From a virus, in IMG/VR virus record IMGVR_UViG_3300025759_000064, positions 1-64,000 of that record: a stretch of 64,000 nucleotides of DNA; one strand, written 5' to 3'. A model generated the notes under the pieces. It searched no databases and was not told where the DNA came from. It saw nothing but the letters and a program-made list of their open reading frames with translations. Shown here in pieces: positions 32,926-57,222 of this stretch. Position numbers and translations under genes: made by a program. The stretch's first letter is position 1. Each line of letters starts with the position of its first letter.

Positions 32926-32936
32926 GACATTCCCTC

Positions 32937-39338: not shown

Positions 39339-41765
39339 TTAGACACCCCCGAATGAAACCTTGACCACTTTAACTACTCTATCGGAATAGCCGTATGTCT
39401 TAGATATTCTCTCCCAATCGCCTTTAGTGTTTAATATTGTACTAACATCCATAGATGTGATGTCTAGCATTTTCGCTAAGTAAAGAATGTCTGTAATAGA
39501 ATCTACGCTTAAATTATTAGAAGGTAAATGCTTGATAATTTCATCATCTTTTCGAGCATCTTCTATTTGTAATATTTCTACTGCTTTAATTAGTCTATCC
39601 ATGGCGGCATTATGCCCATCTTTACTTTTAGTAGGATAGTCAGAAAGAAAACGTTGGTAGGGGTCACCCATATTTTGTTGAAACTCTCGTTGTCTCTGAG
39701 AAGATACTACACCAACTGGTGGTACTTGGGTTTCTCCGGGGTAAAGCACTTGCGCTTGCTGAGGATGGTATTGTGGTCGAGGTAATCTAGACATTACATT
39801 TTGTACTGTTTCAGGAGACGCATAACCAAACTTTGCTCTCATTTGTTGGTCAGGAGTTATTTTTTTATTTGCAACTAATTGACGAAAGTGTTCTGTATTT
39901 GGGTCTACTTGCAATTGTGCTCTTCTTGCAGCATCGCTTAGTGGTGGTGGCGCACCACTAGTTGCAGCCGGAGGTGCACCGCCGGAAACTGGAACAGGTG
40001 CACCGGATATACCTTTTTCTTTACCCGGTTGTGGTTTTAATGTGGTTTCTTCGGGTTGCATAGATGCGCCGACTGGTGACATAGATGATGTCATGTCTGA
40101 ATATCTAATGTGTTCTGGCACACCTAATTGCCCCCTATCTTCGTGTGTACCTCCTTGAAGTATATTGTCTACAATTGGTTGTAATTGCTGTAATTCTTCT
40201 TGTGAAGGTATTTCTTTTCTTTCATGTCCCCCCGCTATGGTGTGGCTATGAAACAAATGGTCTAGCATTATTTTTACATTAGGCGCAGCCGCTCTTGTTT
40301 CAGGAGTATCATACAATCTAATTTTTGCCGCTTTCAAATCTTCGGGCGATAAATCATCTTCTGCATGATTGATTCCCTGAGATGCTGCAAGCACAACATT
40401 ACTCCATGCGTCTTTTGCTCTATTATGATGACCTATACCTCCTCTTACTTGATGTTGCTTATACGCTTCAATTTTTTCAGTATGGCTCATAAAATGGTCA
40501 AGCCCTTTTCCTTCTTCTGCTGTATCTCCATATCTCTGCCCATATAGATGATTCATTTTTCCAACAGTTTGACCTGCTTGTTTTATACTCCCATCTTCAT
40601 TAAACTTAGGATTTCTATTTTCACCGTAAACTGCTTGAAACGCTGGAAACTGAGATAAATAATTAGCCGCTTCTAATTGTCCTTGAGGTGTTTGTAATAA
40701 TACTTTTAGCGGCTTACCGTTTATTTCACCGGGTATATTTGCTAAATGTTTCATAGCCCCTGCGCTATCAACTATCAAGTTATTAACAACCCCTTCTCTA
40801 TTTTTCCCAGTTACTAAAGCCATGTGATGAAGAAAACTATCTACTGTTTGTTTTCTTGTTTGTCTTTTTCCACCCGGTGCTGCATCAATTTGAGGTATGT
40901 AGTAAACGTTAGGATAATGATGGGCTATTCCCCAAGATGTAATATTTTGAAAGGCTCTACTATCAGGTATTCTACTACCCCATTTTAATCTTTGACTTCC
41001 GTGTAATCTATCACCATCTAATTTACCTGAGTCTATCGAATTAGCACCAAACTGCATCCCACCTTTTCCATCAGGAACTAAATGTAATCTATGTGGTTTT
41101 ACATAAGGTTTCTTTACCCAACTATGTTTTTGCGGATTAGGATGTCCCAGTTGTGCCATAACTTCTCCAAGTTGTTTATTGAAAGGTATAGCATAAGATT
41201 CTAGATAAGTGCCACTTCTATGATTATCGCCGTGTCTATTAGTATACGTTGTAATTAAATTACCATCTTGAGTATAATTACTTCTTACTCTATGGTCTTG
41301 TTCCGTTAATGGTGCTAAATGCATTTTTCTCCAACCAACGCTATCTACATTAGGTAAATGATTGTCTTCTTTATGGTTTTGATTATGCATATCTATGGCT
41401 TTTTGAATTACATCTTTTGCTGGCGCTTTTATTCCATGTTCTAACAAAGAGTCCCCAACTGCACGTATTATTCCGTCAATACCATGCATGTGTTCTCCGC
41501 CGGATTCATCAGCGTATATTTGTTCTCCATGCATACCTGTTTTCCAATCACCGGGAAAAACGTGACCCATTCCGGGCACCCCCGTTTCTTCTTCCGAGTG
41601 AGCGCCAGTGTGAGCAAACGCTGGAATATCAGGCATATTTGGGTCTCGGTTATGAGCCTCAGGCGGTGGGAATCTTAGAGGATTCATTTTACCTGCAAAT
41701 AAACTATAATTACCATCGCCCTTTCTAAGTAGAAGAGATTTCATAATTATAGAGGATTTAATCAT
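39339..41765 (-). CDS. Putative internal head protein (808 aa)
   Basis: His/Gly/Pro-rich composition like the 1,804-aa protein; C-terminal helical/HTH-like segment. Confidence 0.6.
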   Translation of the reverse strand: MIKSSIIMKSLLLRKGDGNYSLFAGKMNPLRFPPPEAHNRDPNMPDIPAFAHTGAHSEEETGVPGMGHVFPGDWKTGMHGEQIYADESGGEHMHGIDGIIRAVGDSLLEHGIKAPAKDVIQKAIDMHNQNHKEDNHLPNVDSVGWRKMHLAPLTEQDHRVRSNYTQDGNLITTYTNRHGDNHRSGTYLESYAIPFNKQLGEVMAQLGHPNPQKHSWVKKPYVKPHRLHLVPDGKGGMQFGANSIDSGKLDGDRLHGSQRLKWGSRIPDSRAFQNITSWGIAHHYPNVYYIPQIDAAPGGKRQTRKQTVDSFLHHMALVTGKNREGVVNNLIVDSAGAMKHLANIPGEINGKPLKVLLQTPQGQLEAANYLSQFPAFQAVYGENRNPKFNEDGSIKQAGQTVGKMNHLYGQRYGDTAEEGKGLDHFMSHTEKIEAYKQHQVRGGIGHHNRAKDAWSNVVLAASQGINHAEDDLSPEDLKAAKIRLYDTPETRAAAPNVKIMLDHLFHSHTIAGGHERKEIPSQEELQQLQPIVDNILQGGTHEDRGQLGVPEHIRYSDMTSSMSPVGASMQPEETTLKPQPGKEKGISGAPVPVSGGAPPAATSGAPPPLSDAARRAQLQVDPNTEHFRQLVANKKITPDQQMRAKFGYASPETVQNVMSRLPRPQYHPQQAQVLYPGETQVPPVGVVSSQRQREFQQNMGDPYQRFLSDYPTKSKDGHNAAMDRLIKAVEILQIEDARKDDEIIKHLPSNNLSVDSITDILYLAKMLDITSMDVSTILNTKGDWERISKTYGYSDRVVKVVKVSFGGV

Positions 41766-43642
41766 GGAGTTCTACCGCCTCGACTTGTTAAGTGGTCTAA
41801 AGGGTTGATTCCAAAAGTACGAGGGTCATTAGTTGCATCTTCCGTTGCACCTTCCGGCCTAGTAGTTTCTTTAGTGGGCGCATTATTATGCGCTGGTAAA
41901 TTACTAGCAGAACCTACGTTTGAATCACCTTTACCTTTTTTCTTGGTTTCTTTTCTTTTCATCGCTCTTCGAGCGTCGTTAACGAGTTGGCGAAGTTCGG
42001 CCATGTCATAGTATGATAGTCCCCGCTTTTGTAATTCGCTACCTTCTCCAACTTCACTAGTCATCACAGGTGCACCTTGTATAGCAGAACTAGGTAATCT
42101 AGGTCTGTAAGTTGGACTCTGACCGGACATACCCTGAACACCAACGCCCATTCTTGGTTGCGACATTACAGGTGGACTAGGTATACTAGGCGATGGTAAT
42201 GTAGCCCTGCGCGGTGAAGATGGGGGCATTAGTGGTGGTGGTCTAATAGACCTAAGTGCAGGTCTTCTCATTTGTTGCGCTTGTCCGGGTAGTAAACTTT
42301 GCAATGTACCACCGCCAGTCAAACCTGCTTTGTAAGAACGTGCACCGAATCTTGACGGTGTAGATGAAACGGTTCGTATGTTACCTAAACGCTTTCGTGC
42401 CTCAGATTGACCGAGGTATTGTCTGTATCTTTGTACATCTTTAGACATAGGTTGTTTAGTTTTTACACCCCTGTGAGACATTTCGACAGCAAGATGCGCT
42501 CTACTTAATCCAGTTTTCTTCCCACCAGCAATACCACGCATTCTAGCCTTGGCTCTTCTAGATGTAGCACTGCCGGGTGTCATTCCGCCCGGTGGTCTCT
42601 TGAACTCACCAGTTGAAGGTCGCCATTTCTTCTGCCTTTCTTTATGTGCTTTTCTTGCTTTTGCCCCTTTCTTTCTTTTCGGCTTTTTACCTACAAAGCC
42701 CTGTCTCTCGCTTTTGAGTAATTGAAATGCTATTTCTATGGGATTACCTTTCAAATCACCCATCATTGACTGGTCAAAAGACGGTTGTGAGTTTTTATGT
42801 TTCAACGCTTTCAGAGTAGCCATGTACATACTCATATTAATCACTGCTAAATCTTCGTGATTCATGTCGTGATAATTAGTTTGATTTCTCATATTTTGTA
42901 AAAGGTTATTAGCAGGGTCTGACAATTGCCTTGGAGCACCTCGCGGAGAACGACTCATCACCATGTAATCATGTAATAGTTTCAAATCACTTTCAGTTTC
43001 ACGCAATTGAGGCTCAAATGCCGCAACACCTTCATTGCTTCTTGTCAACTCATTTACAGCATCGTCATGGTCTTGTACCATTGGATGATTTACATTCATG
43101 TGTAAGAGTGGATATCTGTTTTCATCAAATGAGTTACCAAACATACTCATCTCATTTATATCACCATCTAAATATGACTGTAAATGTTCATCTTTGTATG
43201 CTTTTAATAATTGGAATGCTATTTCCATAGGTTCTCCCATGGCAAAGTTCTGCCCTCCGGCAAAACCCGGCCCTCTAGCCTGATTTGCTAAACTTGTAAG
43301 TGCGCCGTAATTACCCGGAGTACCAGTCATCAAAGATGGCTCTAACTCATTATCAAACTTAGTAGGTTGTAAATCTTCATCTTCATCTTCAACGGCAGGT
43401 AAGTCAGCAGTTGTAATAGAAAGATGTTTTAATCGCTTCATTTCATTTGCTCTATCTTTACGTTCTTGTTTTTTACGGTCAATACGAGCATCACGATGTT
43501 CTGTATCTTCTCCGCCGTATGCACCTTCTTCTTCGTGATTTGCGCGGAACATGTGAGAAGATTCACTTCTCGGTCCATACATTCGCGTATCGCTACCCGT
43601 ACTTGTCATACCTGATTTTAGAATACGCACAGGTTTACTCAT
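41762..43642 (-). CDS. Putative internal polyprotein with two P[M/I]EIAFQLLK motifs
   Basis: Motifs PMEIAFQLLKA and PIEIAFQLLKS separate acidic and very basic segments. Probable start MSKPVRILK at 43642. Confidence 0.65.
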   Translation of the reverse strand: MSKPVRILKSGMTSTGSDTRMYGPRSESSHMFRANHEEEGAYGGEDTEHRDARIDRKKQERKDRANEMKRLKHLSITTADLPAVEDEDEDLQPTKFDNELEPSLMTGTPGNYGALTSLANQARGPGFAGGQNFAMGEPMEIAFQLLKAYKDEHLQSYLDGDINEMSMFGNSFDENRYPLLHMNVNHPMVQDHDDAVNELTRSNEGVAAFEPQLRETESDLKLLHDYMVMSRSPRGAPRQLSDPANNLLQNMRNQTNYHDMNHEDLAVINMSMYMATLKALKHKNSQPSFDQSMMGDLKGNPIEIAFQLLKSERQGFVGKKPKRKKGAKARKAHKERQKKWRPSTGEFKRPPGGMTPGSATSRRAKARMRGIAGGKKTGLSRAHLAVEMSHRGVKTKQPMSKDVQRYRQYLGQSEARKRLGNIRTVSSTPSRFGARSYKAGLTGGGTLQSLLPGQAQQMRRPALRSIRPPPLMPPSSPRRATLPSPSIPSPPVMSQPRMGVGVQGMSGQSPTYRPRLPSSAIQGAPVMTSEVGEGSELQKRGLSYYDMAELRQLVNDARRAMKRKETKKKGKGDSNVGSASNLPAHNNAPTKETTRPEGATEDATNDPRTFGINPLDHLTSRGGRTP

Positions 43643-44039
43643 GTTGAACCCCCGCAAAATTAAATGACGTTAACATAACAAGTTTTCCGATATTACGATA
43701 AAACAAAGGAACGGTAGATGGGGTAGTAAACTTTGTACCCATTTCTTCACAGTGTTCTAAATAATTATAGCAACTATGACGTATTTGTTCTCTTAACGGT
43801 AAAACAATTTCAGGTTCATCAGTATCATCTAATTGTTTCACACATTCTATAATATGCATTAAACTATCTTCATTAACTAGGACATTGGCTTCTTTGAATG
43901 CATGGTATCTAAAACGTTCTGTTACCTTGACACAATAATCAAAGAACAAAGGATATTGTGATTTTTCCATATTTTCACCCGATAAGAATGAAAGATAGCC
44001 CGGATGCTGTGTTTGCATTAAATCAACCACAGGTATCAC
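43635..44039 (-). CDS. Hypothetical protein (134 aa)
   Basis: Coupled ORF in the operon. Confidence 0.6.
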   Translation of the reverse strand: MIPVVDLMQTQHPGYLSFLSGENMEKSQYPLFFDYCVKVTERFRYHAFKEANVLVNEDSLMHIIECVKQLDDTDEPEIVLPLREQIRHSCYNYLEHCEEMGTKFTTPSTVPLFYRNIGKLVMLTSFNFAGVQHE

Positions 44040-44719
44040 AGCACTTCCTCCATCTCTGCTTGTAATTTACTTTTAATTCTCTTCCAACTATCAGGACTTT
44101 CTTTTGCAAGTTCAACTTTTAGAATATTGATAGTTTGATTAACTTGTGTACCATCTGTTTGTGTACCCCATTTATCTTGAAAGCCAGTTAAATCTTTTAT
44201 TGATTCTCTTACTTCTTTATGTAAAGTAACTGCATTTCTTACAAAGCCTTCTTCATGCACACTACCTTCTTCCATCAATTCAGACAACTTGTTGTTTAAT
44301 TTTTCAACATTGCTTCTTAAAACAGTTATTTCATTTCCAACCGTAATTGCGACCTCAGTTGCTGCTGACCTTTGAACCAACGGCTGAAAGTGATGTTTCA
44401 TGTGATGATACACAGTAGTCTCCTTAATACCTAGTTCTTCTGCAATTAATTCAGATTGAGTACCATCGGAAAAGAATCGATTTTCATATTCTGCTCTATT
44501 CTCACTTGAACAAATTACGCAAGAAGGGTTTGCGGCCATATGGTATTGACCCATGTGATTACGGTAATGTCGGTCAGCAGTATTAGCCCTCCAACCCATA
44601 TCTTTATCCAACTGTTCACAGGATATTTCGCCACTTTTGATGGCCTCCTCAAGCACACTTCTGTCGTCACTTTGACAGAACGCGCATGAACGTTTCATAA
44701 CTGGCTCTCGCTCAACCAT
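44036..44719 (-). CDS. Putative terminase small subunit (227 aa)
   Basis: Two tandem CxxC...HTH...HxxxH units, then a coiled coil and C-terminal strand (QVNQTINIL). Upstream of terL. Confidence 0.55.
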   Translation of the reverse strand: MVEREPVMKRSCAFCQSDDRSVLEEAIKSGEISCEQLDKDMGWRANTADRHYRNHMGQYHMAANPSCVICSSENRAEYENRFFSDGTQSELIAEELGIKETTVYHHMKHHFQPLVQRSAATEVAITVGNEITVLRSNVEKLNNKLSELMEEGSVHEEGFVRNAVTLHKEVRESIKDLTGFQDKWGTQTDGTQVNQTINILKVELAKESPDSWKRIKSKLQAEMEEVL

Positions 44720-44755
44720 GTGTGACCGGAATACTATGTGGTTAATCAGGGTTGC

Positions 44756-45016
44756 TTAGATAAACCGCGTTATTCTCTGATATATAGAGGTCAAGAGTAT
44801 AAAGGAAAAAAATACTCCCACCATATACATTGACATTTCTGATTGGCTAATATCAGCATTCTTGAATATTAAAATCCCCATGAACACAAGTATAGCACTA
44901 ATGAGTTGTACCATTACCATATCTACTATAACTTCTCTTTTTGGAGCAAGCATGTGCATTGACATATCTGCTATTTGTCTAGGTACTGGTACACCGAAAT
45001 TATTACTACCCATCAT
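44756..45016 (-). CDS. Small 2-TM membrane protein (86 aa)
   Basis: Two hydrophobic stretches: MVMVQLISAILVFMGILIF and MYMVGVFFSFILLTSIY. Confidence 0.75.
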   Translation of the reverse strand: MMGSNNFGVPVPRQIADMSMHMLAPKREVIVDMVMVQLISAILVFMGILIFKNADISQSEMSMYMVGVFFSFILLTSIYQRITRFI

Positions 45017-45660
45017 TATACTCTACCTCCTGTGAGGAAATTACGGAAGAAAGTACCACTACCTTGCGCTACGTTATTTATCAATCCGGGGTCTGCTAAT
45101 GCATTTGTTAATTGACTTTGTAGCATACTTTGTTGAGCATTTTGCAACGTTTGTTGTCTTTGATTATCTGCTTGTGCTATGGTTTGATTTACCATATTAG
45201 TCATAGAGTTCATTTGTGACATTACGTTTTCAGAACTCATAGTCTGTAACTCTGTTGGTAAACTAGCCACATCTAATTTGAATATTCCATTCTCTTCATC
45301 AAAAGTGTAATTAGCATTTTTTAACACATTTAGTAAAGAAAAAGTGTTTATCTGACTAATAACATCTAACAGCATAGGAAATAATTGTGATTGAAGAAAT
45401 CTCTCCACAGGGTAAGAAGTGTTTAACATCGTTAACAAAATCTCTGTATCACTAGGTGGTACAATGGCTTGTTGATTGTAAGGGTCTTGACCAGTAGCAC
45501 CCGCCCACGCTGCGCTTAGAGCACTCGGTTGCTGAGGTTGTTGATACCATTGTTGCGGTGGAGCGGTATATCCACTACCGTAATTTGTGTTAGGCGCTCC
45601 AGTTTGACTTAGATTAAGTGCGCTAGAAGCGGGTTGTTGATTATTCCAATTCATTGTCAT
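45016..45660 (-). CDS. Gln/Asn-rich protein with coiled coil and C-terminal amphipathic helix (214 aa)
   Basis: QQP-rich N-terminus, Q/M-rich helix, ends in GTFFRNFLTGG. Confidence 0.7.
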   Translation of the reverse strand: MTMNWNNQQPASSALNLSQTGAPNTNYGSGYTAPPQQWYQQPQQPSALSAAWAGATGQDPYNQQAIVPPSDTEILLTMLNTSYPVERFLQSQLFPMLLDVISQINTFSLLNVLKNANYTFDEENGIFKLDVASLPTELQTMSSENVMSQMNSMTNMVNQTIAQADNQRQQTLQNAQQSMLQSQLTNALADPGLINNVAQGSGTFFRNFLTGGRV

Positions 45661-46625
45661 TGCATACCCTCCAACACTGCTTCCGGTATCAACGGAGGGG
45701 GGTTTATGGTTTGAGCCTGTTGGTTTAGAATATCTTGGAATGCAATGTTAGGCGTAGTCATATCTCTAAGTTCTTTTTGAAACATTCTCATATCAAAAGT
45801 AATTGTCGTAATATCATTATCGCCGCTAACTGGATTAACGTAATGTTGCATTGTAATACCTTTACTTTTTCTTACATCTGCTGAAATCTCAGCAAAGAAA
45901 GGTTCGTATTTAGTAATCATAGGATGTATTGGACCTGTCTGCCCAGCAGTAATAGTAGAAACTGGTACAGTAACTATACTGACTCCTCTTTTTATCTTAT
46001 CACGAAATCGACTAGGTTTCATTTCATCTTCAACATCTTGCTGTTCTTCCCATTTACAAAGTAAATGATACAAATGTAAATGTTCAGGACAATAAGTTGC
46101 TCTCATTTTTCTACCACTTGTTACTCCTTCTCTTGCTATGAATGCTTCTGCCTCACCTGTAACTGGATTTTGCCAGTACATATCCCATAGAGTTTTACCA
46201 GTATCTTCATCACTTATTCTAGAATATAAATTATCATGTTGTATTAATTCTTTTACATTACATCCATCAACACAACAGACAGCAGTATCTTTGTTATACA
46301 TATATTTGCTGTGACGGAATAATCTACGAGGGTCAAATATGGAGCGTTTTGTTGGGCTTAATAATTTGTAAGCCTGACGAATATCTTGTTTTCTTGCTTT
46401 GTAAGGATTAGCGTGCCTCGATGGATAGAAGTTAACCTTAGGCACTTCTATGTTCTTTTCCATAGACATTCTTTGCATCTGTTGTTGTGCTGCTGCTTGT
46501 TCCATTAGAGCAGCATGACTAAAATTAGGATTACCTTGTTGTGATAAAGCCATTAATGTAGCATCATTCACTTGACCTAGATTCGGTTGCTGCTGAGAAT
46601 AAAACGGATTCATGTTCATTACCAT
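45657..46625 (-). CDS. Hypothetical protein with Gln-rich N-terminus and Cys/His ligands (~322 aa)
   Basis: CCVDGC...YCPEH. Start moved to ATG 46625 (GGAGTGA RBS), downstream of the AbrB ORF. Confidence 0.7.
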   Translation of the reverse strand: MVMNMNPFYSQQQPNLGQVNDATLMALSQQGNPNFSHAALMEQAAAQQQMQRMSMEKNIEVPKVNFYPSRHANPYKARKQDIRQAYKLLSPTKRSIFDPRRLFRHSKYMYNKDTAVCCVDGCNVKELIQHDNLYSRISDEDTGKTLWDMYWQNPVTGEAEAFIAREGVTSGRKMRATYCPEHLHLYHLLCKWEEQQDVEDEMKPSRFRDKIKRGVSIVTVPVSTITAGQTGPIHPMITKYEPFFAEISADVRKSKGITMQHYVNPVSGDNDITTITFDMRMFQKELRDMTTPNIAFQDILNQQAQTINPPPLIPEAVLEGMQ

Positions 46626-46630
46626 GCGTA

Positions 46631-46810
46631 TCACTCCTGTGGGCTTACTGAAATAGACATTTCGCCATCTTTTACTATTAATGACCACTCTATTTTAGAG
46701 CCAGCAGACAAACCAAATTGCTCTACTATCCACATAGGAATAGTAGTTCTAAGAGAATTACTAGAGCCTCCTGTGGAGACTAAGGCTGTTGTCGACGTGC
46801 CCTTACCCAT
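46631..46810 (-). CDS. AbrB/MazE/SpoVT-family DNA-binding protein (59 aa; not in ORF track)
   Basis: MGKGTSTTALVSTGGSSNSLRTTIPMWIVEQFGLSAGSKIEWSLIVKDGEMSISVSPQE; SLRTTIPxxIVxxFGLxxGxxIEW is the archaeal swapped-hairpin signature. Confidence 0.8.
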   Translation of the reverse strand: MGKGTSTTALVSTGGSSNSLRTTIPMWIVEQFGLSAGSKIEWSLIVKDGEMSISVSPQE

Positions 46811-46852
46811 GTCTCTCGCACACCCTACTCATCTAAAAGGTCACTGTTGAGG

Positions 46853-47578
46853 TCAGTAATCTACCATCTCTAATAATGTGTTTTCTACATTCCATCCTAT
46901 ACGTGTTGCCATGAAAGAACGTCTTGTTGGAATACCTGCTTTTTGTAATCTAATTAGGTCTTCTCTAAAAGGGTCAAATATCTTATGTTCTCCAATTCTA
47001 CCTTCTCTCCATAATTGAGCGGCCTTGTTATCAAAATATCTATCCGCTTTATTAGCAACTAGAAGAATCATTTTTGGTGCATACTTTTTCCCTTTTCTCC
47101 AACTTTTCCAATTTCTATATCTATAATTTCTTTCTATTATATTATCTACTAAAAATCTAAATCCACCTATTTGGGTTAAAGCATCGTCGCCACCTTTGAA
47201 AGCCCTATCATCAAACATAAATATCGCATATTCGCATTGTCTAGCGACCATATCATCTATCCAAAGATTCCAATATCTTTCTTCTCCACCTAAATCAGCA
47301 GAGTGAATAACTCTTCTCTCTCCTTCCCAACGCACTCTTTTACGTGTAGGTTTAGGTAAAATATAGCGAGTTATTAATTTGAAATGTTTAGTCCTTTCGT
47401 GTTCAGGTATTTCTTCCATTTCACCGGGCGTAGTCATATATTTGTCTAAAGTAGTTTTACCAACCATAGACGCGCCATATATTCCCACTCTTCTAGATTT
47501 CCAATTATTGTAGGCTTGTTTACCGTATAAGGCTACACCCACTAATATACTGCCGCTTGCCGCAACCATATCAATCAA
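46853..47578 (-). CDS. Arf/Sar-like small GTPase with N-terminal hydrophobic helix (241 aa)
   Basis: G1 GASMVGKTT, G2 candidate T (HERT), G3 DLGGE followed by RYWNLW, AIFMFD strand, G4 LVANKAD, G5-like MATRIGWNV. Confidence 0.85.
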   Translation of the reverse strand: MIDMVAASGSILVGVALYGKQAYNNWKSRRVGIYGASMVGKTTLDKYMTTPGEMEEIPEHERTKHFKLITRYILPKPTRKRVRWEGERRVIHSADLGGEERYWNLWIDDMVARQCEYAIFMFDDRAFKGGDDALTQIGGFRFLVDNIIERNYRYRNWKSWRKGKKYAPKMILLVANKADRYFDNKAAQLWREGRIGEHKIFDPFREDLIRLQKAGIPTRRSFMATRIGWNVENTLLEMVDY

Positions 47579-47862
47579 CTAAACTTATTTGTTAACCATG
47601 TTCCAAAGTCTGCTACTTTTTGATATACCCATTCAACTGTCATTTCCCATAAGTTCCAATCTGTATTGGCTTCCATTGCAGAAACAGCCATTGCTGCACC
47701 GACAGAACATAATATTGTTCTAATCCAACCCAGTCCCCATTCGTAGGTATTATCTACTGTATTTGCTAAATGCATAGCACGCAGTGTTTCTTCAACTGAA
47801 TCATCACCAACATTGCGAAAAATACGCAATGGAGAAGGAATTAACTGTCCGGGTAGTACCAT
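47575..47862 (-). CDS. Small membrane-associated protein (95 aa)
   Basis: Hydrophobic WIRTILCSVGAAMAVSAM plus Trp-rich amphipathic C-terminus; ATGA overlap with the GTPase. Confidence 0.7.
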   Translation of the reverse strand: MVLPGQLIPSPLRIFRNVGDDSVEETLRAMHLANTVDNTYEWGLGWIRTILCSVGAAMAVSAMEANTDWNLWEMTVEWVYQKVADFGTWLTNKFS

Positions 47863-47873
47863 ACTGCTTTACC

Positions 47874-48539
47874 TCAGGAGGCTTTGTATCTTAAATCCGG
47901 CGTACCGTCTTTCTTTAATCGCTGATTTGTTGGTTGCCCATCTCTTGGTGGTATAGGTAATGTTCGTGGAGGTAAGTTAGACTGGCTTGTCATTGCATCT
48001 ACTGCTCTTTGTGTATTCGACAAACCTAGATTCATCGGTGCTTCTTTTTGTGCAGAATGAGTAGGTACTCCAAATGGATTAGCGGTGTTATGATAATCAC
48101 CAGCGACACCATCGGATATATTACTACCATTAAAGAACTGACTATTTTGCATTATTCTACTAGGGTCTTCTTGCATTAAACGTAATTCATGTTCTAATTG
48201 TAATTCCATTTGTCTTAATTCTAAGTCTGCTCTACGTTGGTCAAAACCCATTTGTTGCTGTCTATACATGTTTTGTCTATTTCTTTGCATTTCAGCAACT
48301 TCTACTTTTTCTTTCATAGATTGTTCAAAGAACATTTTGAATAAGTAATAGGCTATTGTTTGTACTGCGAGCGCACCCATAGCATACGTCATTCCATTAA
48401 TAGTGGAATTAGCATTAGCCCCTGTTGGTAACCATAACCCTGAACTATACACTCCTACTGCTACTCCTACTAACGCAGATTGGGACAAAATTAGCCCTGT
48501 CATTTTCATTTCATTTGTATCTCCGATGTCTCTACTCAT
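47874..48539 (-). CDS. 2-TM membrane protein with coiled coil (221 aa)
   Basis: Two N-terminal TM segments, Q/E/R coiled coil, C-terminal RLKKDGTPDLRYK motif. Confidence 0.75.
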   Translation of the reverse strand: MSRDIGDTNEMKMTGLILSQSALVGVAVGVYSSGLWLPTGANANSTINGMTYAMGALAVQTIAYYLFKMFFEQSMKEKVEVAEMQRNRQNMYRQQQMGFDQRRADLELRQMELQLEHELRLMQEDPSRIMQNSQFFNGSNISDGVAGDYHNTANPFGVPTHSAQKEAPMNLGLSNTQRAVDAMTSQSNLPPRTLPIPPRDGQPTNQRLKKDGTPDLRYKAS

Positions 48540-48659
48540 ACTGTGACCTCGCTCTAGCCCACGGTGGGGGTCATCTTAAGCCTTATCTGTCCGAATATTC
48601 TAATGTCTTGTATATACATAAAGAATAATATGTACTATTGTATAGATAGACAATCGGAA

Positions 48660-49136
48660 TCATCGGACAGGCCATATACCTTCAGGTGCATATTTTTGCC
48701 ACATAGATTGAGCCTCAGGTGATTGGTCATTATCAGGGGTTAATGTTTGGTCATAATTAGATAACACTTCTGCCATAGTATCATAGAGATTTTTAGCATA
48801 TCCTCTTTGTCGATAAGGTTGTTCTGTTCTCGCATTCATAACACTGGTAGTGTTTCTATCGCCTAAAGTTCTAGCATTCATTCTATTCCTATCACTAATA
48901 TTCCCAGCGATATTTAATCTAGGTCGTGTTCTTTTCAAAGGTTTACCAAAATAAGTTCCACCGTTTTCTCGCCTTCTAACATCTATGTCTGTTTGTAATA
49001 TTTCATTAGTAACAGGGTCTTGAAAATCAGCAGCCCACGTATCGTGTTCGCCTGATGGTTCAGATGTTACTCTTCTTAATGAATCGGGAATCATAGGCGC
49101 TTTGAGCACAATCCACGCTTGGTCGAAGGCGGTCAT
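48660..49136 (-). CDS. Leader-bearing GNAT-like acetyltransferase (158 aa)
   Basis: MTAFDQAWIVLK leader; motif A TEQPYRQRGYAKNLY; DQSPEAQSMW. Confidence 0.7.
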   Translation of the reverse strand: MTAFDQAWIVLKAPMIPDSLRRVTSEPSGEHDTWAADFQDPVTNEILQTDIDVRRRENGGTYFGKPLKRTRPRLNIAGNISDRNRMNARTLGDRNTTSVMNARTEQPYRQRGYAKNLYDTMAEVLSNYDQTLTPDNDQSPEAQSMWQKYAPEGIWPVR

Positions 49137-49351
49137 TGATTATCACTCCACCAAGTATCTACTTCAGGGTCATTCATCAAATCTTCATTAAAATAATAGA
49201 AATGCTTCTTGTAACAATCATCACATAACATTCTTGGAAAATCAACGCCATCATCAAGTGTATGATTCTGACTGTTTAACAAAGCACCACAATGTGAACA
49301 AGCGCCCACTTCTAATTTTAGCAAAGCCCACGCTTGGTCGAAGGGGTTCAT
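49133..49351 (-). CDS. Leader-bearing Zn-finger protein (72 aa)
   Basis: MNPFDQAWALLK leader; CSHC...CDDC. Confidence 0.7.
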   Translation of the reverse strand: MNPFDQAWALLKLEVGACSHCGALLNSQNHTLDDGVDFPRMLCDDCYKKHFYYFNEDLMNDPEVDTWWSDNQ

Positions 49352-49710
49352 CAGCAGTTCCACCGTTTGAGCGCTGCGCCCTTCGGTGTTAGTTTTCCAC
49401 CTTTACTGGTCGGTCCTTTGCTCCCACCCATTCTAGCACAGAATGACTTTCTTCTGTTTGCCGCTTTACTACCGGGTTTTAGTGAACTTGGTTTTTTAGT
49501 AACAGGTCTTTTCAAGTTTGCACCTGTCTCTCGCTTGAACTTTGCACGCCCTTTTGCATTTAGACCACCACTTCTGCTATGCCTGTTTGGATTGTAACCG
49601 TGAAATGGTTTTGATTTCTTTTTTGCTTTTTCAAACACAGAATCTAACAGTGCTACTGATGCTTGTTGCATAGGTGTGCAACAGTCACATGTGTCAAATC
49701 CCATAGTCAC
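49351..49710 (-). CDS. Small basic protein (119 aa; recalled as DUF6321-like)
   Basis: GGLNAKGRAKFKRETGANLKRPV...RRKSFCARMGG resembles a widespread marine-virus family. Family name from memory, not searched. Confidence 0.65.
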   Translation of the reverse strand: MTMGFDTCDCCTPMQQASVALLDSVFEKAKKKSKPFHGYNPNRHSRSGGLNAKGRAKFKRETGANLKRPVTKKPSSLKPGSKAANRRKSFCARMGGSKGPTSKGGKLTPKGAALKRWNC

Positions 49711-50015
49711 CGTAACACACCCACCATCTTAACAATTGTTGGCTTTCCGCCCACACCTTGCTTTTTTGCACGTTTTCTTTTTGTTGCTGCTTGCTTCTGA
49801 CCTGATGACATAGAACCTGATGTTTTTGGCGTTTTGCTTGAAACCTTGATTGATGGTCTGCATTTAGGATAACCTTTACTAGATTTATTTGCTTTACTTC
49901 TACCACACGGAGGATGCTTACCATCTTTAGTACGCGACACATCTACCCATTTTTCTTTGAACCAGCGATTTAGGTTCTTAACTACAAGAGTATCATGGCA
50001 AGTACATCGTGTCAT
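49707..50015 (-). CDS. Small basic protein (102 aa; recalled as DUF5872-like)
   Basis: LNRWFKEKWVDV...CGR...YPKCRP motif. Family name from memory, not searched. Confidence 0.65.
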   Translation of the reverse strand: MTRCTCHDTLVVKNLNRWFKEKWVDVSRTKDGKHPPCGRSKANKSSKGYPKCRPSIKVSSKTPKTSGSMSSGQKQAATKRKRAKKQGVGGKPTIVKMVGVLR

Positions 50016-50173
50016 ACTACTCCTACCATTTTCTTAATACTCTTTTGTTTATCCATCAATGCGTAACAAGGACATTTAGGAGCGGATGCTGAACATTGAT
50101 TACCCTCAATCATACAAACGCAAGGCGTTTTACTAGTAGCCCCGCAACAACATTTGTCTTTCTTAAGTTTCAT
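50012..50173 (-). CDS. Cys-rich small protein (53 aa; not in ORF track)
   Basis: MKLKKDKCCCGATSKTPCVCMIEGNQCSASAPKCPCYALMDKQKSIKKMVGVV; ATGA overlaps on both sides. Confidence 0.65.
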   Translation of the reverse strand: MKLKKDKCCCGATSKTPCVCMIEGNQCSASAPKCPCYALMDKQKSIKKMVGVV

Positions 50174-50340
50174 TTTTTCTTTTTCCCCTTAAACTTACCA
50201 CGACAATATTGAACAGCCCACCCGTTTGCATACGCAGATGGGTAAACATCGAACTTTTTCTTTGCGGCTGCTTTTCCAGCAGGGCATAGTTTTTTCCAAA
50301 CCGCATCCATACCAACACAATGACCGCATTCGCAACTCAT
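50170..50340 (-). CDS. Small basic protein with YPSAYA motif (56 aa; not in ORF track)
   Basis: MSCECGHCVGMDAVWKKLCPAGKAAAKKKFDVYPSAYANGWAVQYCRGKFKGKKKK; ATGA overlaps. Confidence 0.7.
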   Translation of the reverse strand: MSCECGHCVGMDAVWKKLCPAGKAAAKKKFDVYPSAYANGWAVQYCRGKFKGKKKK

Positions 50341-51902
50341 TTTTTCACCTTAACCCTGCGAAGTGTACCTTTATTTTTGAAATGCCTTGCTCTATTTGAG
50401 TGTGCACTCTCTAAAGTTAATTTTCCACCTTGCGTGTGGCTGACATCTTTACCACCTTTTCCGTATATGCCCCGCTTCCTACGCTCTGTGTTTAATTGCT
50501 CACGATACTTTACACGCTTAGGTGTCTTTTGATATTGCTTGTCATACTCTAATTTGTGAGCAAATGCTGCTGGCGACTTGCGCTCTTTGAGCAACTGATA
50601 GGCTATGTCCATTGGTTCGCTGGCTAGTTTCCGATTTTTCCACTCAAAACGGGTAGTATATTCAGGATGGTCTTCGGGAAGCAACGACATTGGAGGACGT
50701 TCTTTACTTGGCTCAAGCCGTCTATATTCATTTTCAAAATGTCGTCTGTTCTCCCTTTTTTGTTTTTCATAATACCTATTGAACTCCTTTATTGAATCCC
50801 AATAGTCTTGTTCATTATAATCTTTTATATTTCCATATCCGTATAATCTTTCAGAGCCTTCATCTCGCTCGTATGGTTGGATATTGCTGAAATAATCATA
50901 TAACATATTTTCATCCATATCTTCGTCTTCCTGAATATTTTTAAGCAACTGGAGGGCTATGTCCATTGGACTACCTTTAGTCAATTCGTAGATTTCATCT
51001 TTAGTTTTACCATAAAATAAATTATGTAACTCATCTGCATCCATATCTTCTATCTTTTTTCGTTTAATCGGCTTACCCCAAGGTAAAGGTTTGTCGCTCC
51101 ATCTACTAATTCGGCCACTTGGCCTTCTGTCTGTATTACTAATATTACGACCTAAATTGGGAGTGCCCATCTCTAGTGTTTCGTCTTTATAATGTCGTCG
51201 CAATGGTACTTCAACTAAACTTTCACGTGGAATATTTTCATCATGCTCAATAAACGCTTCTGCTAAATCTTCTTTTGCTTCGTCACTATCTCTTCTGTGC
51301 ACTTTTCCGTATTTATCAAGATTTCCACGTACATAAACTAACTTATCGGGGGCATTATGGGTGTATAAATTATTAATATCTCCCATTGTATTATTTGAAA
51401 CCCAAGTTCCAGCCTTTGCATTTTTTAATCCAGCGAAAAGTTTTCGCGCGCGGGGATGATACTTACCATCTCTATGCGCACCTGCCATATAATACGGTAC
51501 ATTTGATATAGGGTCTTTCCTCCATCTCGAATTAGGGTCTTCCCAAACAGGGTCATTATCATGGGGTATTTCAGGAATCAGTGGTGGAAGTCTTGGGTCA
51601 CCTTCTTCATAGTTTATATTAGAGCCATCTTGCGGTACAGGTTCTCCCGCAGGTCTATGCGCCCCTTGTACACGAACAGCCCTAACGGGGTCCCATCCTT
51701 CCCAACCAGTTGTGTAATCTAATCTAGGGTCATGCATTGGCAACTTTGTTTGATAATTATTTTCAATTGTGTACTCCGGGTGATTTGGAAACAATTGCGC
51801 TCTTCTCGCTTGTTCCATCATATCCATATATTCTTTCGATTCTTTAATAGCCTCTTCATCTTCTAACGATTTTAGAAAAGCCCAAGATTTGTTAAACACC
51901 AT
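50337..51902 (-). CDS. Leader-punctuated polyprotein (~521 aa): possible ART-like domain, acidic segment, HNH-like basic domain
   Basis: Start MVFNKSWAFLK; internal PMDIALQLLK and PMDIAYQLLK; C-terminal GKDVSH...ESAHSNRARH. Confidence 0.65.
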   Translation of the reverse strand: MVFNKSWAFLKSLEDEEAIKESKEYMDMMEQARRAQLFPNHPEYTIENNYQTKLPMHDPRLDYTTGWEGWDPVRAVRVQGAHRPAGEPVPQDGSNINYEEGDPRLPPLIPEIPHDNDPVWEDPNSRWRKDPISNVPYYMAGAHRDGKYHPRARKLFAGLKNAKAGTWVSNNTMGDINNLYTHNAPDKLVYVRGNLDKYGKVHRRDSDEAKEDLAEAFIEHDENIPRESLVEVPLRRHYKDETLEMGTPNLGRNISNTDRRPSGRISRWSDKPLPWGKPIKRKKIEDMDADELHNLFYGKTKDEIYELTKGSPMDIALQLLKNIQEDEDMDENMLYDYFSNIQPYERDEGSERLYGYGNIKDYNEQDYWDSIKEFNRYYEKQKRENRRHFENEYRRLEPSKERPPMSLLPEDHPEYTTRFEWKNRKLASEPMDIAYQLLKERKSPAAFAHKLEYDKQYQKTPKRVKYREQLNTERRKRGIYGKGGKDVSHTQGGKLTLESAHSNRARHFKNKGTLRRVKVKK

Positions 51903-51903
51903 T

Positions 51904-52122
51904 CTAAATCCATCCTGATGTCCTCTTTGATTGTTGTGTCTTAGGTTGTGACGTAGGTTGAGGCGGATTGGCTTGCATATTTCTTTTAGCATCTGCGTTT
52001 TTAGCCATTATCATGTCTTGTAGAGACATAAAGCGACCTGAGCCGGGAGGATATTCGTGCATATCAATGGGGTCTGCTTTGAGAAATTGCCAAGCCTCAT
52101 TGAATGCGGTCAACCCAATCAC
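51904..52122 (-). CDS. Leader-bearing small protein (72 aa)
   Basis: TAFNEAWQFLK leader. Confidence 0.65.
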   Translation of the reverse strand: MIGLTAFNEAWQFLKADPIDMHEYPPGSGRFMSLQDMIMAKNADAKRNMQANPPQPTSQPKTQQSKRTSGWI

Positions 52123-53264
52123 CTATTTGCAAAAACATCTTTTGGCATACGAGGTCTTGGTTTGTTAGGGTCTGCAAATCGTGGGTCACCCGGTCTAGGC
52201 GCACCACGTGGTTTTCGCATTTCAGGCATACCTTCCGCCATTATTGCAGCCCGTTCCGCTTCATTCATTTCCGCTTGGCGTGCATCTTCATCACCAAACT
52301 CAGGTTTACCGTATGGCGGTCCTAAATCTTCCCCATCATATTCAGGAAAACCTTCATCATCGTATCTACTTGGACCGGGCATACTATCTCTAGTGTAATT
52401 ATTCGCCCCTTTTCTATGTAAATCTTCGTCTATAAAACGTTGAGGAGACATATCAGGAAGATTTCGTGCTCTGACGTGTTCGGGTAAATTAGATATTCTA
52501 AAGTTTTGCTTCAACATTTCAAATGCTTTTTGCATAGGTTTACCCCTGCCGGGGATTCGATGTAGCATTTTTGAATTGATAAGTTCTTGTAATTTTGCCT
52601 CACTTGCTGCTCTTTTACCAAGTTTAGTGTTTTTTAACGCTTCTTGCAAAAATGGGGCATAATCATCCTTAAAATCCCGCACCTCTTTATTAGTTGGGTG
52701 TGTTTGTTGGTATGAGTAAGATTGTGGTGCTTTGGTTCTTCTTTGGTTATCTTTGTTAGCATAAGCATTCATTTGGTCCATAGGGTCATCTACACTTCCA
52801 TATGGCATACTATCGGCGTAGTACTCAGGGTGCATATCTAACGTTGGGGTTTTACCATCACGGTAATCTAATGCACTTTCATTTGCACGAAGATTCAGAT
52901 TTGGCAAGTCTGCATTTTCGTCATTATAACTACCTGATGTCAAATGGGGGTTTTCTTTCATGCGCCTCTGCATCATCCCATATATCGCAGGGTGTATAGT
53001 ACCCGCACCCTCTTGCCTCTCTCCGACATCAGGGCCTTCTCCTTGGTAAGTGATTTCTGCTAGATTGGCTCTGTCATAAGCAGGTTCAAACATTTGATGC
53101 TCAGGTAGCGCTTTCAAGGTCTGCCACGATTTCTTCATAGGCATAGAGCCGTATTTCTTCATGTTCGGTGTAGCGGCATCGGTGGGCTTAGTTTTCATTT
53201 TTGGCCCAATGCTGATAATTACAGCAACGCCCTTTTTCTTTTTCTTGTCTTTCATTTTAATCAC
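52119..53264 (-). CDS. Leader-punctuated low-complexity protein (381 aa)
   Basis: Internal PMKKSWQTLK and PMQKAFEMLK. Confidence 0.65.
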   Translation of the reverse strand: MIKMKDKKKKKGVAVIISIGPKMKTKPTDAATPNMKKYGSMPMKKSWQTLKALPEHQMFEPAYDRANLAEITYQGEGPDVGERQEGAGTIHPAIYGMMQRRMKENPHLTSGSYNDENADLPNLNLRANESALDYRDGKTPTLDMHPEYYADSMPYGSVDDPMDQMNAYANKDNQRRTKAPQSYSYQQTHPTNKEVRDFKDDYAPFLQEALKNTKLGKRAASEAKLQELINSKMLHRIPGRGKPMQKAFEMLKQNFRISNLPEHVRARNLPDMSPQRFIDEDLHRKGANNYTRDSMPGPSRYDDEGFPEYDGEDLGPPYGKPEFGDEDARQAEMNEAERAAIMAEGMPEMRKPRGAPRPGDPRFADPNKPRPRMPKDVFANR

Positions 53265-53266
53265 TT

Positions 53267-53614
53267 TTAATTTTGATATTGTGGATTATTTTGCTGGTAC
53301 GGTGGCCTTTCATGCTCAAATGGGTTTCTTTTAGCCTCAAATGGTTTGGGTTGATGAGGTTGGTAAGGGTTGTAAGGTAGGTTGTTATCATTTGGATTAC
53401 CTTGTCCGTATGGCGCATTTTGCTTCATTCTCTCCATGTACTCGTCCAAAGTTCGCTGTTTACCTTCTTTTGATGGAGAGGGGGCGTAAGGGTTAGGTTG
53501 AGGATTATTTCGGTAAGGTTGGTTAGATGGATTGGAAGGCATTGCTCGGTGGTATAAATAATTCGGGTTAGGTGCGCTTTTCAAAAACGTCCACGCTGTT
53601 TCAAATGCTGTCAT
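53267..53614 (-). CDS. Leader-bearing Pro/Asn/Gln/Tyr-rich protein (115 aa)
   Basis: MTAFETAWTFLK leader; NPY/QPY repeats. Confidence 0.65.
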   Translation of the reverse strand: MTAFETAWTFLKSAPNPNYLYHRAMPSNPSNQPYRNNPQPNPYAPSPSKEGKQRTLDEYMERMKQNAPYGQGNPNDNNLPYNPYQPHQPKPFEAKRNPFEHERPPYQQNNPQYQN

Positions 53615-53883
53615 TCTCCTTGACCCCCTCTAAATGACTCAAACCATTCGGGATGGTTCTGTCTGTAAAAATCAATTATTTTAGCATCTTCTTCGTGGTC
53701 ATCTATTTTTTCACGTAATTTTGAAGCCTTTTGCTTCTTTTTACGGCTATCAGACCTTGTTTTACCAGTTTGATTCAGTGCCTCTTCCATGTAACTTGGC
53801 ATATCGTGCTGCATAGCAACTTGAGAGGAGGGGGACATTTTTAGCACATTTATTGCTGCATCTATTGGATTCATTTTATTCAC
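53611..53883 (-). CDS. Leader-variant small protein (90 aa)
   Basis: MNPIDAAINVLK. Confidence 0.6.
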   Translation of the reverse strand: MNKMNPIDAAINVLKMSPSSQVAMQHDMPSYMEEALNQTGKTRSDSRKKKQKASKLREKIDDHEEDAKIIDFYRQNHPEWFESFRGGQGE

Positions 53884-54055
53884 CTTTTACGCATCGGCGT
53901 GGTAACTACGTGCACCGCTAGTAATGCGATATGTCTAATATGTTACGCTCTATCCTGAGGGCGTGGTGGCTTCCATTCCGCAGGGTCAAGTTGTTGTAAG
54001 TTCTTCTTCTTTCCACATTCATTACCTCAAAAAAAATAAGCAGACTGGTGGGAAT

Positions 54056-57178: not shown

Positions 57179-57222
57179 GCGCCTCACACAGCGTTACTCT
57201 ATATCGAACTACCGCTAAATTA

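Follow-up and report, generated by a model that had tools for sequence, protein, structure and literature searches.

A conserved gene cassette centred on a divergent Arf-type small GTPase in a magrovirus-like archaeal virus genome

Described systems and the viral locus

ArvA-ArvB-ArvC (OapABC) is a GTPase operon for vesicle formation in Haloferax and other Euryarchaeota, and its GTPase ArvA has an N-terminal amphipathic helix and an experimentally shown membrane-deforming role (PMC10927574). Structures are also available for the Asgard ArfR protein GerdArfR1 (PDB 8OUM/8OUN; PMC11914678). The 64,000-nt stretch of viral DNA analysed here (the window) carries on its minus strand, at 44756-48660, what we regard as a self-contained late-gene cassette centred on a divergent Arf-type small GTPase. 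Its layout is like that of ArvABC, in that a small GTPase with an N-terminal helix has a zinc-type protein and a further small partner encoded after it in the operon, whereas the viral partners are orphan proteins and integral membrane proteins. Profiles of OapB (PF09846) and OapC (PF09845), which were positive in Haloferax controls, found nothing in a six-frame search of the whole 110.9-kb genome at E values up to 0.01. Because of this, the parallel with ArvA/OapA drawn in a preliminary description of this DNA would extend to architecture only, and not to the partner genes.

With the Arf family the viral GTPase shares a DxGG motif followed by x6-W-x2-W, which resembles Arf DVGGQ..R.LW, an NKxD motif, a G5 “AT” resembling Arf CAT, and an N-terminal helix directly ahead of strand 1. 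It differs in having ~18 extra residues between G1 and the switch-I Thr and ~24 before G4, in lacking both Gly2 (the myristoylation site of Arf proper) and a Pfam Arf match, and in its viral context with unrelated partners. SRbeta likewise places an Arf-like G domain behind an N-terminal hydrophobic membrane segment, and its structures match the viral fold with Z scores of 14.2, 13.8 and 13.4; however, the hydrophobic stretch of the viral protein does not reach the length of a classical TM anchor, an SRX/SRalpha-like partner was not recognised, and the window protein has no SRPRB match.

Phage lysis cassettes are similar in containing several small 1-2-TM proteins with charged cytoplasmic tails among late genes. 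Unlike them, the viral cassette has no holin, spanin or endolysin match and belongs to a virus whose host presumably has no murein, and we know of no GTPase counterpart in known lysis cassettes. Giant eukaryotic viruses also encode Ras-superfamily GTPases, such as the mimivirus Rab (PDB 5XC5), and these are the only viral structures in BFVD and in the PDB (Z 12.7) that resemble our model. They are recent captures of eukaryotic Rab, Ran or Ras, whereas the magrovirus family is isolated and found in archaeal tailed viruses.

The GTPase and its relatives

The GTPase gene (46853-47569, minus strand) encodes 238 residues. The listed ORF, 46853-47578, extends to a TTG at 47578; the true start is most probably the ATG at 47569, since every homologue starts at this position. 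The small-GTPase motifs previously noted in this frame are present: G1 GASMVGKTT, G3 DLGGE followed by RYWNLW, G4 NKAD and G5 FMATRIGWNV occur in the order that defines Ras-superfamily small GTPases of the TRAFAC class (G1 GxxxxGK[ST], G3 DxxG, G4 NKxD, SA-type G5, in a fold of ~170-240 residues). G1 (GKTT) and G4 (NKxD) are invariant across 124 sequences, 70 from virus group A, to which the window belongs, and 54 from group B. The family consensus at switch II, D-x-G-G-Q-E-R-F-W-N-L-W, has the Arf-type form with the interswitch Trp (DxGGQ; Arf WDVGGQ..R.LW). The window protein has Glu instead of Gln after DxGG, a position at which Q, E, H and D alternate within groups.

The AlphaFold2 model of the GTPase has a pLDDT of 71 and a pTM of 0.73. 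Its N-terminal ~25 residues are predicted to be helical, with the helix at residues 4-23 modelled at low confidence (pLDDT 44-53). This helix, noted earlier as hydrophobic, has both hydrophobic and amphipathic character: a short hydrophobic half, with a stretch of only ~12 residues, and an aromatic/basic amphipathic half occur in all branches of the family, and the helix-then-G-domain layout is found family-wide among the viral GTPases. The helix is thus a candidate for the membrane-binding type.

By sequence the family is nearly isolated, with 83 clusters among 1.8 billion representatives and no relatives found among 50,697 phage records. The only Pfam match of the window protein is Roc, at 17.1 bits. 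Across 19 family members, Arf gives weak matches (E up to 1) in 11, level with Roc as the joint commonest, and has the best E-value, and SRPRB matches weakly in seven. The outermost relative, P0203, which carries the JGI name SRbeta, passes both the Arf cut-off (36.2 bits against a gathering threshold of 22.3 bits for PF00025) and that of SRPRB; it is the only one of the 19 above the Arf threshold. A profile built from the viral family alone finds Asgard Arf in the PDB at 7e-7, followed by Arl8 (5e-4) and Rab33B (8e-4).

Structure comparison gives the same neighbourhood. All top fold matches are small GTPases, the closest solved structures being of Arf/Arl/Sar type: Foldseek places Asgard GerdArfR1 at the top, and Z scores are 14.6 for Arf6, 14.2 for SRbeta and Sar1, 13.7 for Arl2 and 13.4 for Arl13B. 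Rab structures score below Arf6, SRbeta and Sar1, at 11-12.7, but level with the Arf-type matches are also a Loki RagA-like protein (14.2) and G-alpha (13.5). In a tree of the viral family with 20 small GTPases of one Asgard genome, which contained no eukaryotic sequences, the viral family is monophyletic (97/90), and constraining it to group with Arf/ArfR (AU p 0.19-0.30) or with the Rab/Ras-like set (0.31) gives similar values. The nearest known relatives are Arf-type GTPases (Asgard ArfR1, Arl8, Arf6, Sar1 and SRbeta) by profile and fold. The earlier assignment to the Arf/Sar type therefore stands in that sense, though not as a Pfam Arf match for the window protein.

Genome setting and conserved gene order

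Magroviruses are tailed viruses of Marine Group II / Poseidoniales. We took as defining features a genome of ~65-110 kb with HK97-type morphogenesis genes, its own PolB, a clamp loader and a chaperonin, from marine samples; the present genome has the corresponding size and gene set, and its GTPase homologues originate from marine metagenomes, those of Tara among them. The window represents the morphogenesis arm of this 110.9-kb magrovirus-like archaeal tailed virus genome, and terminase, portal, prohead protease, SU10-type MCP and tail tube share the strand of the cassette; the other arm carries PolB, an RFC-like AAA protein, an ERCC4 nuclease and a chaperonin. Relatives of the MCP in the phage collection come from archaeal tailed viruses only, and we infer marine archaea as the host. 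The gene set agrees with the magrovirus descriptions in PMC5434244 and PMC10768690.

The block is preceded by a 120-nt intergenic leader (48540-48660), which contains an imperfect palindrome, TCTATAC..GTATATAC within TCCGA..TCGGA, a TATA-like box, CTTAAGAT, and a GAGGT ribosome-binding site ahead of the ATG. It is the largest gap of the block, with a median of 136 nt in 76 related loci versus ≤9 nt inside the cassette. The palindrome occurs once in the window versus 0.03 times expected, the leader motifs are shared by the closer group-A loci listed (L002-L019), and the fold z-score is only -1.9. We infer that the leader is a promoter or operator.

The first gene (47874-48539, minus strand) encodes a 221-residue membrane protein with two TM segments and a charged, cytoplasmic coiled-coil-like stretch; its tail is disordered, and a KKDGTPDLRYK motif is conserved at the C-terminus. 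It is followed by a 95-residue Trp-rich protein with one TM segment (47575-47862), whose acidic N-terminal region, DDSVEETLRAMH..NTVDN..YEWG.GW, is strongly conserved and whose stop sits 5 nt ahead of the GTPase ATG. Downstream of the GTPase, a 59-residue AbrB/SpoVT/MazE-type swapped-hairpin protein (46631-46810), probably a DNA-binding regulator, matches Pfam PF04014 just under the cut-off (E 2.5e-5; 24.5 bits versus 24.7). The next protein has 322 residues and a Gln-rich N-terminus (45657-46625, with the ATG at 46625 as the start; the listed ORF runs on to a GTG at 46688). Its invariant C117, C122, C179 and H182 (C-x4-C ... C-x2-H) form a putative zinc site; it is an orphan with no relatives in Pfam, PHROG, the PDB or the Atlas, and its AlphaFold2 model is poor (pLDDT 55). 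A 214-residue Gln-rich protein (45016-45660) combines a disordered Gln/Asn/Gly/Met-rich N-terminus with a conserved, mostly helical C-terminal domain of ~130 residues, and an 86-residue 2-TM protein (44756-45016) is encoded by the last gene of the tightly packed block. Three of the seven cassette proteins are thus predicted membrane proteins, and the neighbours of the GTPase are as first described. Outside the conserved core, 36 nt downstream of the cassette, lies a gene (44036-44719, minus strand) for a 227-residue protein that combines Cys pairs with an HTH and a coiled coil, has weak Pfam HTH_20 and GerE matches and reaches PHROG DNA-binding families at 1.5e-4; it is a candidate late regulator or small terminase.

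Synteny bears out the grouping of these genes. All 80 group-A loci agree in gene order and strand, and a five-gene core (2-TM coiled-coil protein, Trp-rich TM protein, GTPase, Cys/His protein and Gln-rich protein) is retained in the same order across four diverged virus groups, A, B, C and D, always on the strand of the structural genes, at GTPase identities of ~31-39% in B, C and D. The coiled-coil protein is present in 77 of the 80 group-A loci, and its group-A profile matches the counterpart genes of groups C (E 4e-15) and D (E 1e-7); group B has at this position a 165-residue 2-TM protein with no detectable sequence similarity. The Trp-rich protein (79/80) is matched by profile in group D (E 4e-5), while groups B and C have a Trp-rich protein of 72-79 residues in its place, with a TM segment called in one of two group-C loci. 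The Cys/His protein occurs in every group-A locus at a median identity of 61%; its group-A profile matches groups C (3e-25, 6e-48) and D (1e-46), the L171 protein is matched by both the A and B profiles, and hhalign joins A and B at E 4e-5. The Gln-rich protein, also in 80/80, is linked from A to D (2e-22) and from B to C (2e-10) by profile, and from A to B by hhalign (E 3.6e-4).

The remaining genes are less widespread. The 86-residue 2-TM protein, in 80/80 group-A loci, is matched in one of three group-D loci examined (1e-8) and was not detected in B or C, and the HTH/Cys-pair gene is conserved beside the cassette in A and D (A profile to D, 1e-45) and missing from B and C. AbrB, counted as a cassette member at first, is present in 73 of the 80 group-A loci and absent between the GTPase and Cys/His genes of the other three groups: as an accessory gene it is restricted to the window's virus group and lies outside the conserved core. 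In group C the cassette adjoins the viral chaperonin gene. In group B it lies between the MCP and tail-tube genes, and late expression is therefore very likely.

Possible functions of the cassette

We consider it possible, with a probability of roughly 0.35, that the cassette is a GTP-switched device directed at the host membrane in late infection, probably serving release. Once GTP-bound, the GTPase would free its N-terminal helix, which would insert into the host membrane from the cytoplasmic side, like that of Arf or Sar1. The membrane-bound GTPase would there contact the Trp-rich 1-TM protein and the coiled-coil 2-TM protein, joined in the window's group by the second 2-TM protein, with the Cys/His and Gln-rich proteins as its regulator and/or effector. 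Together, the cassette proteins could remodel or permeabilise the membrane late, most likely timing or driving virion release. In favour of a role in release, no other lysis function was recognised: the lack of a holin/endolysin pair reported before is in line with a Pfam scan that recognised no lysis enzyme among the 40 window ORFs it covered. Several observations count against it, however. The hydrophobic stretch of the helix is short, the GTPase falls below the Pfam Arf cut-off and the tree gives it no Arf placement, and with Glu for Gln after DxGG in the window's clade GTP hydrolysis is only presumed. The cassette membrane proteins match no holin, spanin or archaeal egress family in Pfam, NCBIfam or PHROGs. 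Moreover, a late membrane protein could equally serve superinfection exclusion or assembly, and the shared-leader-motif genes flanking the cassette are also compatible with virion cargo.

The same Arf-like fold and N-terminal helix would suit a membrane-attached platform (an assembly or replication site, a vesicle or an invagination) without release, on which the GTPase recruits viral or host factors in the way that coats are recruited by Arf and Sar1. Low-complexity Gln-rich regions of the type that drives condensates occur in two partners, the group-C cassette adjoins the chaperonin gene, and archaeal ArvA drives vesicle formation in Haloferax (PMC10927574). Nevertheless, we hold this to be unlikely: the genome has no match to the OapB and OapC profiles, no coat-like protein was recognised and compartments are not known from tailed archaeal virus infections. 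It is more improbable still that the proteins are virion-borne in the head or neck and ejected at entry, forming or controlling an envelope channel like the T7 and P22 ejection proteins. Both flanks of the cassette are genes with a leader of F-D-x-A-W-x-x-L-K type or internal copies of it (12 matches between 41.7 and 57.2 kb), the group-B cassette lies between head and tail genes, and the Cys/His protein has the genome's only near-miss to the leader. That near-miss is, however, at chance level (1 seen versus an estimated ~1.4 expected), no cassette protein starts with the leader, and a nucleotide switch carrying a membrane helix has no precedent as capsid cargo.

The GTPase might instead be a soluble regulatory switch, for example in late transcription with AbrB and the HTH protein or in DNA packaging, next to membrane genes with a separate role such as superinfection exclusion. 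The AbrB and HTH/Zn proteins within or beside the block in the window's group, the conserved palindrome ahead of it and the low model confidence of the helix all accord with this. Yet groups B, C and D lack AbrB, B and C also lack the HTH gene, both upstream membrane genes stay beside the GTPase in all four groups, and the hydrophobic helix is conserved family-wide; we give this explanation little credence.

The cassette is real and, as our searches found no description of it, undescribed in the searchable literature. The fullest form of the GTP-switched, membrane-acting reading, that the cassette is the magrovirus release machine, disrupting the membrane at a time set by GTP through an Arf-like switch, is tentative and somewhat doubtful. 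If true, it would give tailed archaeal viruses their first defined egress mechanism, and it would mean that a prokaryotic virus uses Arf-type membrane chemistry whose origin is independent of eukaryotic trafficking.

The virus and the setting of the cassette

The IMG/VR record is 110,919 bp long and rated 98% complete, and the window covers its first 64 kb. Nearly all genes between positions 2 and 57,187 of the window lie on the minus strand, in an arm that encodes the large terminase, portal, prohead protease, SU10-type major capsid protein and a tail-tube-like protein. Genes of the other arm specify a family-B DNA polymerase, an RFC-like AAA protein, PD-(D/E)XK and ERCC4/Hef-type nucleases and a Cpn60/TCP1 chaperonin. 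Two giant ORFs belong to the structural arm on the minus strand (2-15205, >5068 aa and running off the window, and 27511-32973, 1820 aa), and their sole Pfam match is a weak laminin-G/concanavalin-like one in the scanned part of the first. A gene for a SAP-domain (DNA-binding) protein (17807-18556, minus strand; Pfam E 4.5e-10) sits amid the head and tail genes, and a more distant virus (locus L092, group B below) has in a similar position a 164-aa protein (6487-6981) whose C-terminal motif looks alike by eye. The start of the replication arm carries a protein with ArdC-N and zincin metallopeptidase domains (60683-61630, plus strand) and a SNF2-family helicase (61974-63998, plus strand).

Among 50,697 phage records searched, only archaeal tailed viruses have relatives of the capsid protein: HVTV-1, HCTV-1, HCTV-5 and viruses assigned to Methanofastidiosa and Methanomassiliicoccales. 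The GTPase studied here has homologues in marine metagenomes, those of Tara included, and the contigs that carry them reach 125 kb. Magroviruses are tailed viruses of Marine Group II archaea, and the gene set and habitat of the window's virus match their published description (PMC5434244, PMC10768690). Marine Group II archaea are thus the probable hosts.

The GTPase cassette (44756-48539, minus strand) lies between the terminase region and a set of genes that share a 9-residue leader motif of the type F-D-Q-A-W-x-x-L-K, which starts, or recurs within, eleven ORFs. The genome holds 14 exact matches to this pattern, 12 of them within a 15-kb stretch (41762-57187, minus strand) that brackets the cassette; the pattern is also exact in ORFs on the plus strand of the whole genome at 73236-73832 and 81154-81822. 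Amid the leader-bearing genes is an HMGL-like gene of the pyruvate carboxyltransferase/HMG-CoA lyase family (54773-55642, minus strand; Pfam E 8e-27), which may be an auxiliary metabolic gene. An invariant, family-conserved helix of the cassette's Cys/His protein, D-I-x-Q-A-Y-K-L-L-x-P (46363-46392, minus strand; residues ~100-109 of ORF 45657-46688), is the single near-miss to this motif in the genome and differs from it by the absence of the last Lys; with one such case seen and ~1.4 estimated by chance, we rejected it as evidence.

Gene order across four virus groups

Viruses with the cassette fall into four diverged groups, A to D. The window's virus belongs to group A, within which the GTPases are 63-98% identical, and all 80 of its closest viral loci keep one order on one strand: 221-aa protein, 95-aa protein, GTPase, AbrB protein, 343-aa ORF (45657-46688; a 322-aa Cys/His protein from its ATG), 214-aa protein, 86-aa protein and 227-aa protein. 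Intergenic gaps inside the block are at most 9 nt. It is preceded by a conserved leader (median 136 nt) with a palindrome, a TATA-like box and a GAGGT site. The imperfect palindrome, TCCGA..TCTATAC..GTATAKAC..TCGGA (48575-48660, minus strand), is conserved in the closer group-A loci and unique in the window, and its predicted fold scores low (z -1.9). It may serve the AbrB or HTH protein as an operator, or may terminate the gene upstream of the cassette.

Several of the products are predicted membrane proteins. The 221-aa protein has two transmembrane segments, of which a 19-residue hydropathy window flags the first and the alignment reveals the conserved second; by hydropathy, the 95-aa protein has one and the 86-aa protein two. 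The Cys/His protein has invariant Cys117, Cys122, Cys179 and His182, the 214-aa protein joins a low-complexity Gln-rich head to a conserved domain of ~130 aa, and the 59-aa ORF is an AbrB/SpoVT/MazE-type domain slightly below the Pfam cut-off. PHROGs, NCBIfam and PADLOC returned nothing useful for any cassette protein, and no defence-system profile matched. For the Cys/His protein, the predicted structure (pLDDT 55) was too poor for a fold search, a sequence search of the PDB found nothing and Atlas gave no usable match. The 227-aa protein (44036-44719, minus strand), directly past the cassette in groups A and D, combines an HTH with two Cys pairs and a coiled coil at its C-terminus, as might be expected of a late regulator or a small terminase.

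The same components recur in the other groups. Group B comprises at least 140 loci, with a GTPase ~33% identical to that of the window; groups C and D comprise loci L168-L171 and L172-L184. The group C Cys/His protein is matched by both the A and B profiles, and the A profile matches the 2-TM coiled-coil protein of groups C and D and the small Trp-rich protein of group D. For the Gln-rich protein, the B profile matches that of group C and the A profile that of group D. Aligned directly by hhalign, the A and B families meet in the Cys/His protein (E 4e-5) and the Gln-rich protein (E 3.6e-4). Pairwise BLAST and hhalign detect no A-B similarity for either of the two upstream membrane proteins, whose equivalence in group B is judged by position and architecture. 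Because profiles and hhalign tie these components together, we define the core as the 2-TM coiled-coil protein, the small Trp-rich TM protein, the GTPase, the Cys/His protein and the Gln-rich protein. Only group A has AbrB; the 86-aa protein is present there and in one of the three group-D loci examined, and groups A and D share the HTH protein. The association of the GTPase with its neighbours, on which the preliminary description had built its proposal of a functional module, is therefore borne out: order is kept in the close loci and the five-gene core in groups B, C and D.

The position of the cassette in the genome differs between groups, and its genes move together. In group B it has the prohead protease and major capsid protein genes on one side and the tail-tube gene on the other, and in group C it directly follows a chaperonin gene. 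This Cpn60/TCP1 gene (L168 5250-6785, L171 4820-6481) is immediately upstream of the cassette there and ~50 kb away, on the other arm, in the window's virus. A scan of genome contigs with the GTPase gave only three matches (L165, L166 and L167), 8-16-kb contigs with the cassette in MAGs labelled Maricaulis, Parvibaculum and an Asgard archaeon; they are most likely mis-binned viral contigs and not cellular copies.

The GTPase and its relatives

As listed, the GTPase ORF begins with a TTG at 47578; the ATG at 47569 is where every homologue begins, and from there the protein has 238 aa (46853-47569, minus strand). The small-GTPase motifs, hydrophobic N-terminal helix and flanking proteins listed in the preliminary description are each found in the window. 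Across an alignment of 33 homologues, the invariant or nearly invariant elements are G1 GKTT, a signature L-D-x-Y-M-T-T-P-G-E-M-E directly past the P-loop, G3 DxGG followed by W-x2-W, G4 NKAD and G5 F-M-A-T-R-x-G-W-N-V. DxGG is followed by Glu in the window protein and in about one third of groups A and B, by Gln in most others, by His in group C and occasionally by Asp.

In every branch, the first ~25 residues are predicted to form a helix directly before strand 1. One half of this helix is short and hydrophobic, with many small residues, and the other is aromatic/basic (consensus W-G-Q-x-L-Y-N-S-W-R-P-R-R). The hydrophobic run of ~12 residues is short for a transmembrane anchor, and the helix is closer in look to the in-plane helix of Sar1 or Arf than to the transmembrane segment of SRβ. 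We infer that the GTPase binds membrane through this helix. Complex prediction for the GTPase with the 95-aa Trp-rich protein scored 0.00, a value that is not evidence for or against contact.

The family is isolated in sequence. On its own, the window GTPase has a 17-bit Roc match in Pfam and nothing in the PDB, where single-sequence and narrow-profile searches gave nothing or noise and Arf emerged with a family-wide profile only. A profile search of 1.84 billion representative proteins returned only 83 clusters, mostly fragments of the GTPase's own family and with no canonical Ras, Rab or Arf proteins among them. The most distant match, P0203, is itself a Pfam-positive Arf/SRβ-type protein. 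Because an earlier profile had included this Arf-positive outlier, the PDB search was repeated without it, using 17 sequences of the viral family that span all branches: Asgard ArfR1 came first (8OUN, E 7e-7), followed by Arl8/Arl10 (5e-4), Rab33B (8e-4) and KRas (6e-3). In Pfam scans of single members, Arf and Roc were the commonest matches (11/19 each), and the lowest E-value was to Arf, from P0203.

The AlphaFold model (pLDDT 71, pTM 0.73) matches Arf6 with Z 14.6 and SRβ, Sar1 and a Lokiarchaeal RagA-like protein with 14.2 each; Arl2, G-alpha-s and Arl13B come next, and Rab, Ras and Rho score lower (Z 11-12.7). Foldseek ranks GerdArfR1 first. In Atlas, a language-model search, the nearest non-viral neighbours are bacterial clusters, in part Arf-annotated. 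Among viruses, a tblastn search of the phage collection with the GTPase gave no match, the family proteins P0129 and P0157 have no relatives among the viral contigs, and look-alikes in BFVD are limited to Rab, Ras and Ran genes that giant viruses of eukaryotes carry.

In a maximum-likelihood tree whose only reference sequences are 20 small GTPases of one Asgard genome, the viral sequences form a single clade (97/90), outside which P0202 and P0203 branch. By AU tests, both an Arf-like and a Rab/Ras-like attachment are compatible with the data. The preliminary assignment to the Arf/Sar style thus stands for the closest profile and fold relatives, which are Arf-type, whereas the window protein has no Pfam Arf match alone and the tree favours neither Arf nor Rab/Ras. 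We read the GTPase as a deep family of its own, with Arf, Sar and SRβ as the nearest relatives known, rather than as an established member of the Arf family.

A possible role late in infection

The cassette shares a strand with the morphogenesis genes and lies amid them in group B, which argues for late expression. Contigs from metatranscriptomes of at least two studies match the cassette, and the late arm throughout its length, in scattered pieces at 99-100% identity; such contigs carry no proof of transcription, strand or timing and may include DNA carry-over. Late non-structural membrane proteins of tailed viruses usually serve lysis or exclusion, and we know of no tailed archaeal virus whose exit route from the cell has been established. 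On exit, PMC11706807 discusses a holin-like candidate alone, which belongs to viruses of another order. Because of the late position, the usual role of such membrane proteins and the gap concerning archaeal exit, we tentatively place first, at a probability of about 0.35, a GTP-switched late membrane-acting device for release.

The Haloferax ArvABC operon, whose GTPase the preliminary description had cited for its part in vesicle formation, encodes a GTPase with an amphipathic helix and a zinc-type protein (PMC10927574). The cassette resembles it in this pairing, and ArvABC is, as an analogy, the best experimental one for the cassette. OapB and OapC profiles found nothing in this genome, so the two systems are not homologous at the level tested. 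A non-lytic membrane platform or vesiculation is a less probable reading than release. It is rather unlikely that the proteins are borne in the virion and function in entry, and we give similarly low odds to a soluble regulatory switch with unrelated membrane neighbours, an account to be set against the predicted N-terminal helix and the conserved gene order.

Our literature search, with supplementary tables outside it, found no paper that connects a GTPase with magroviruses or with viruses of Marine Group II. In public databases some members bear names given automatically, 'GTPase SAR1 family protein' and 'putative GTPase domain-containing protein' among them. Few archaeal viruses of the surface ocean are as abundant as magroviruses. 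The cassette is noteworthy for its strong conservation, its late-gene setting and its membrane proteins as components. With this GTPase, the Arf-like GTPases known from beyond eukaryotes and Asgard archaea gain a branch that stands isolated in sequence, and its orphan partners may be new kinds of GTPase regulators. As a whole, the cassette is a concrete, clonable candidate for the virus release step or another late membrane event.
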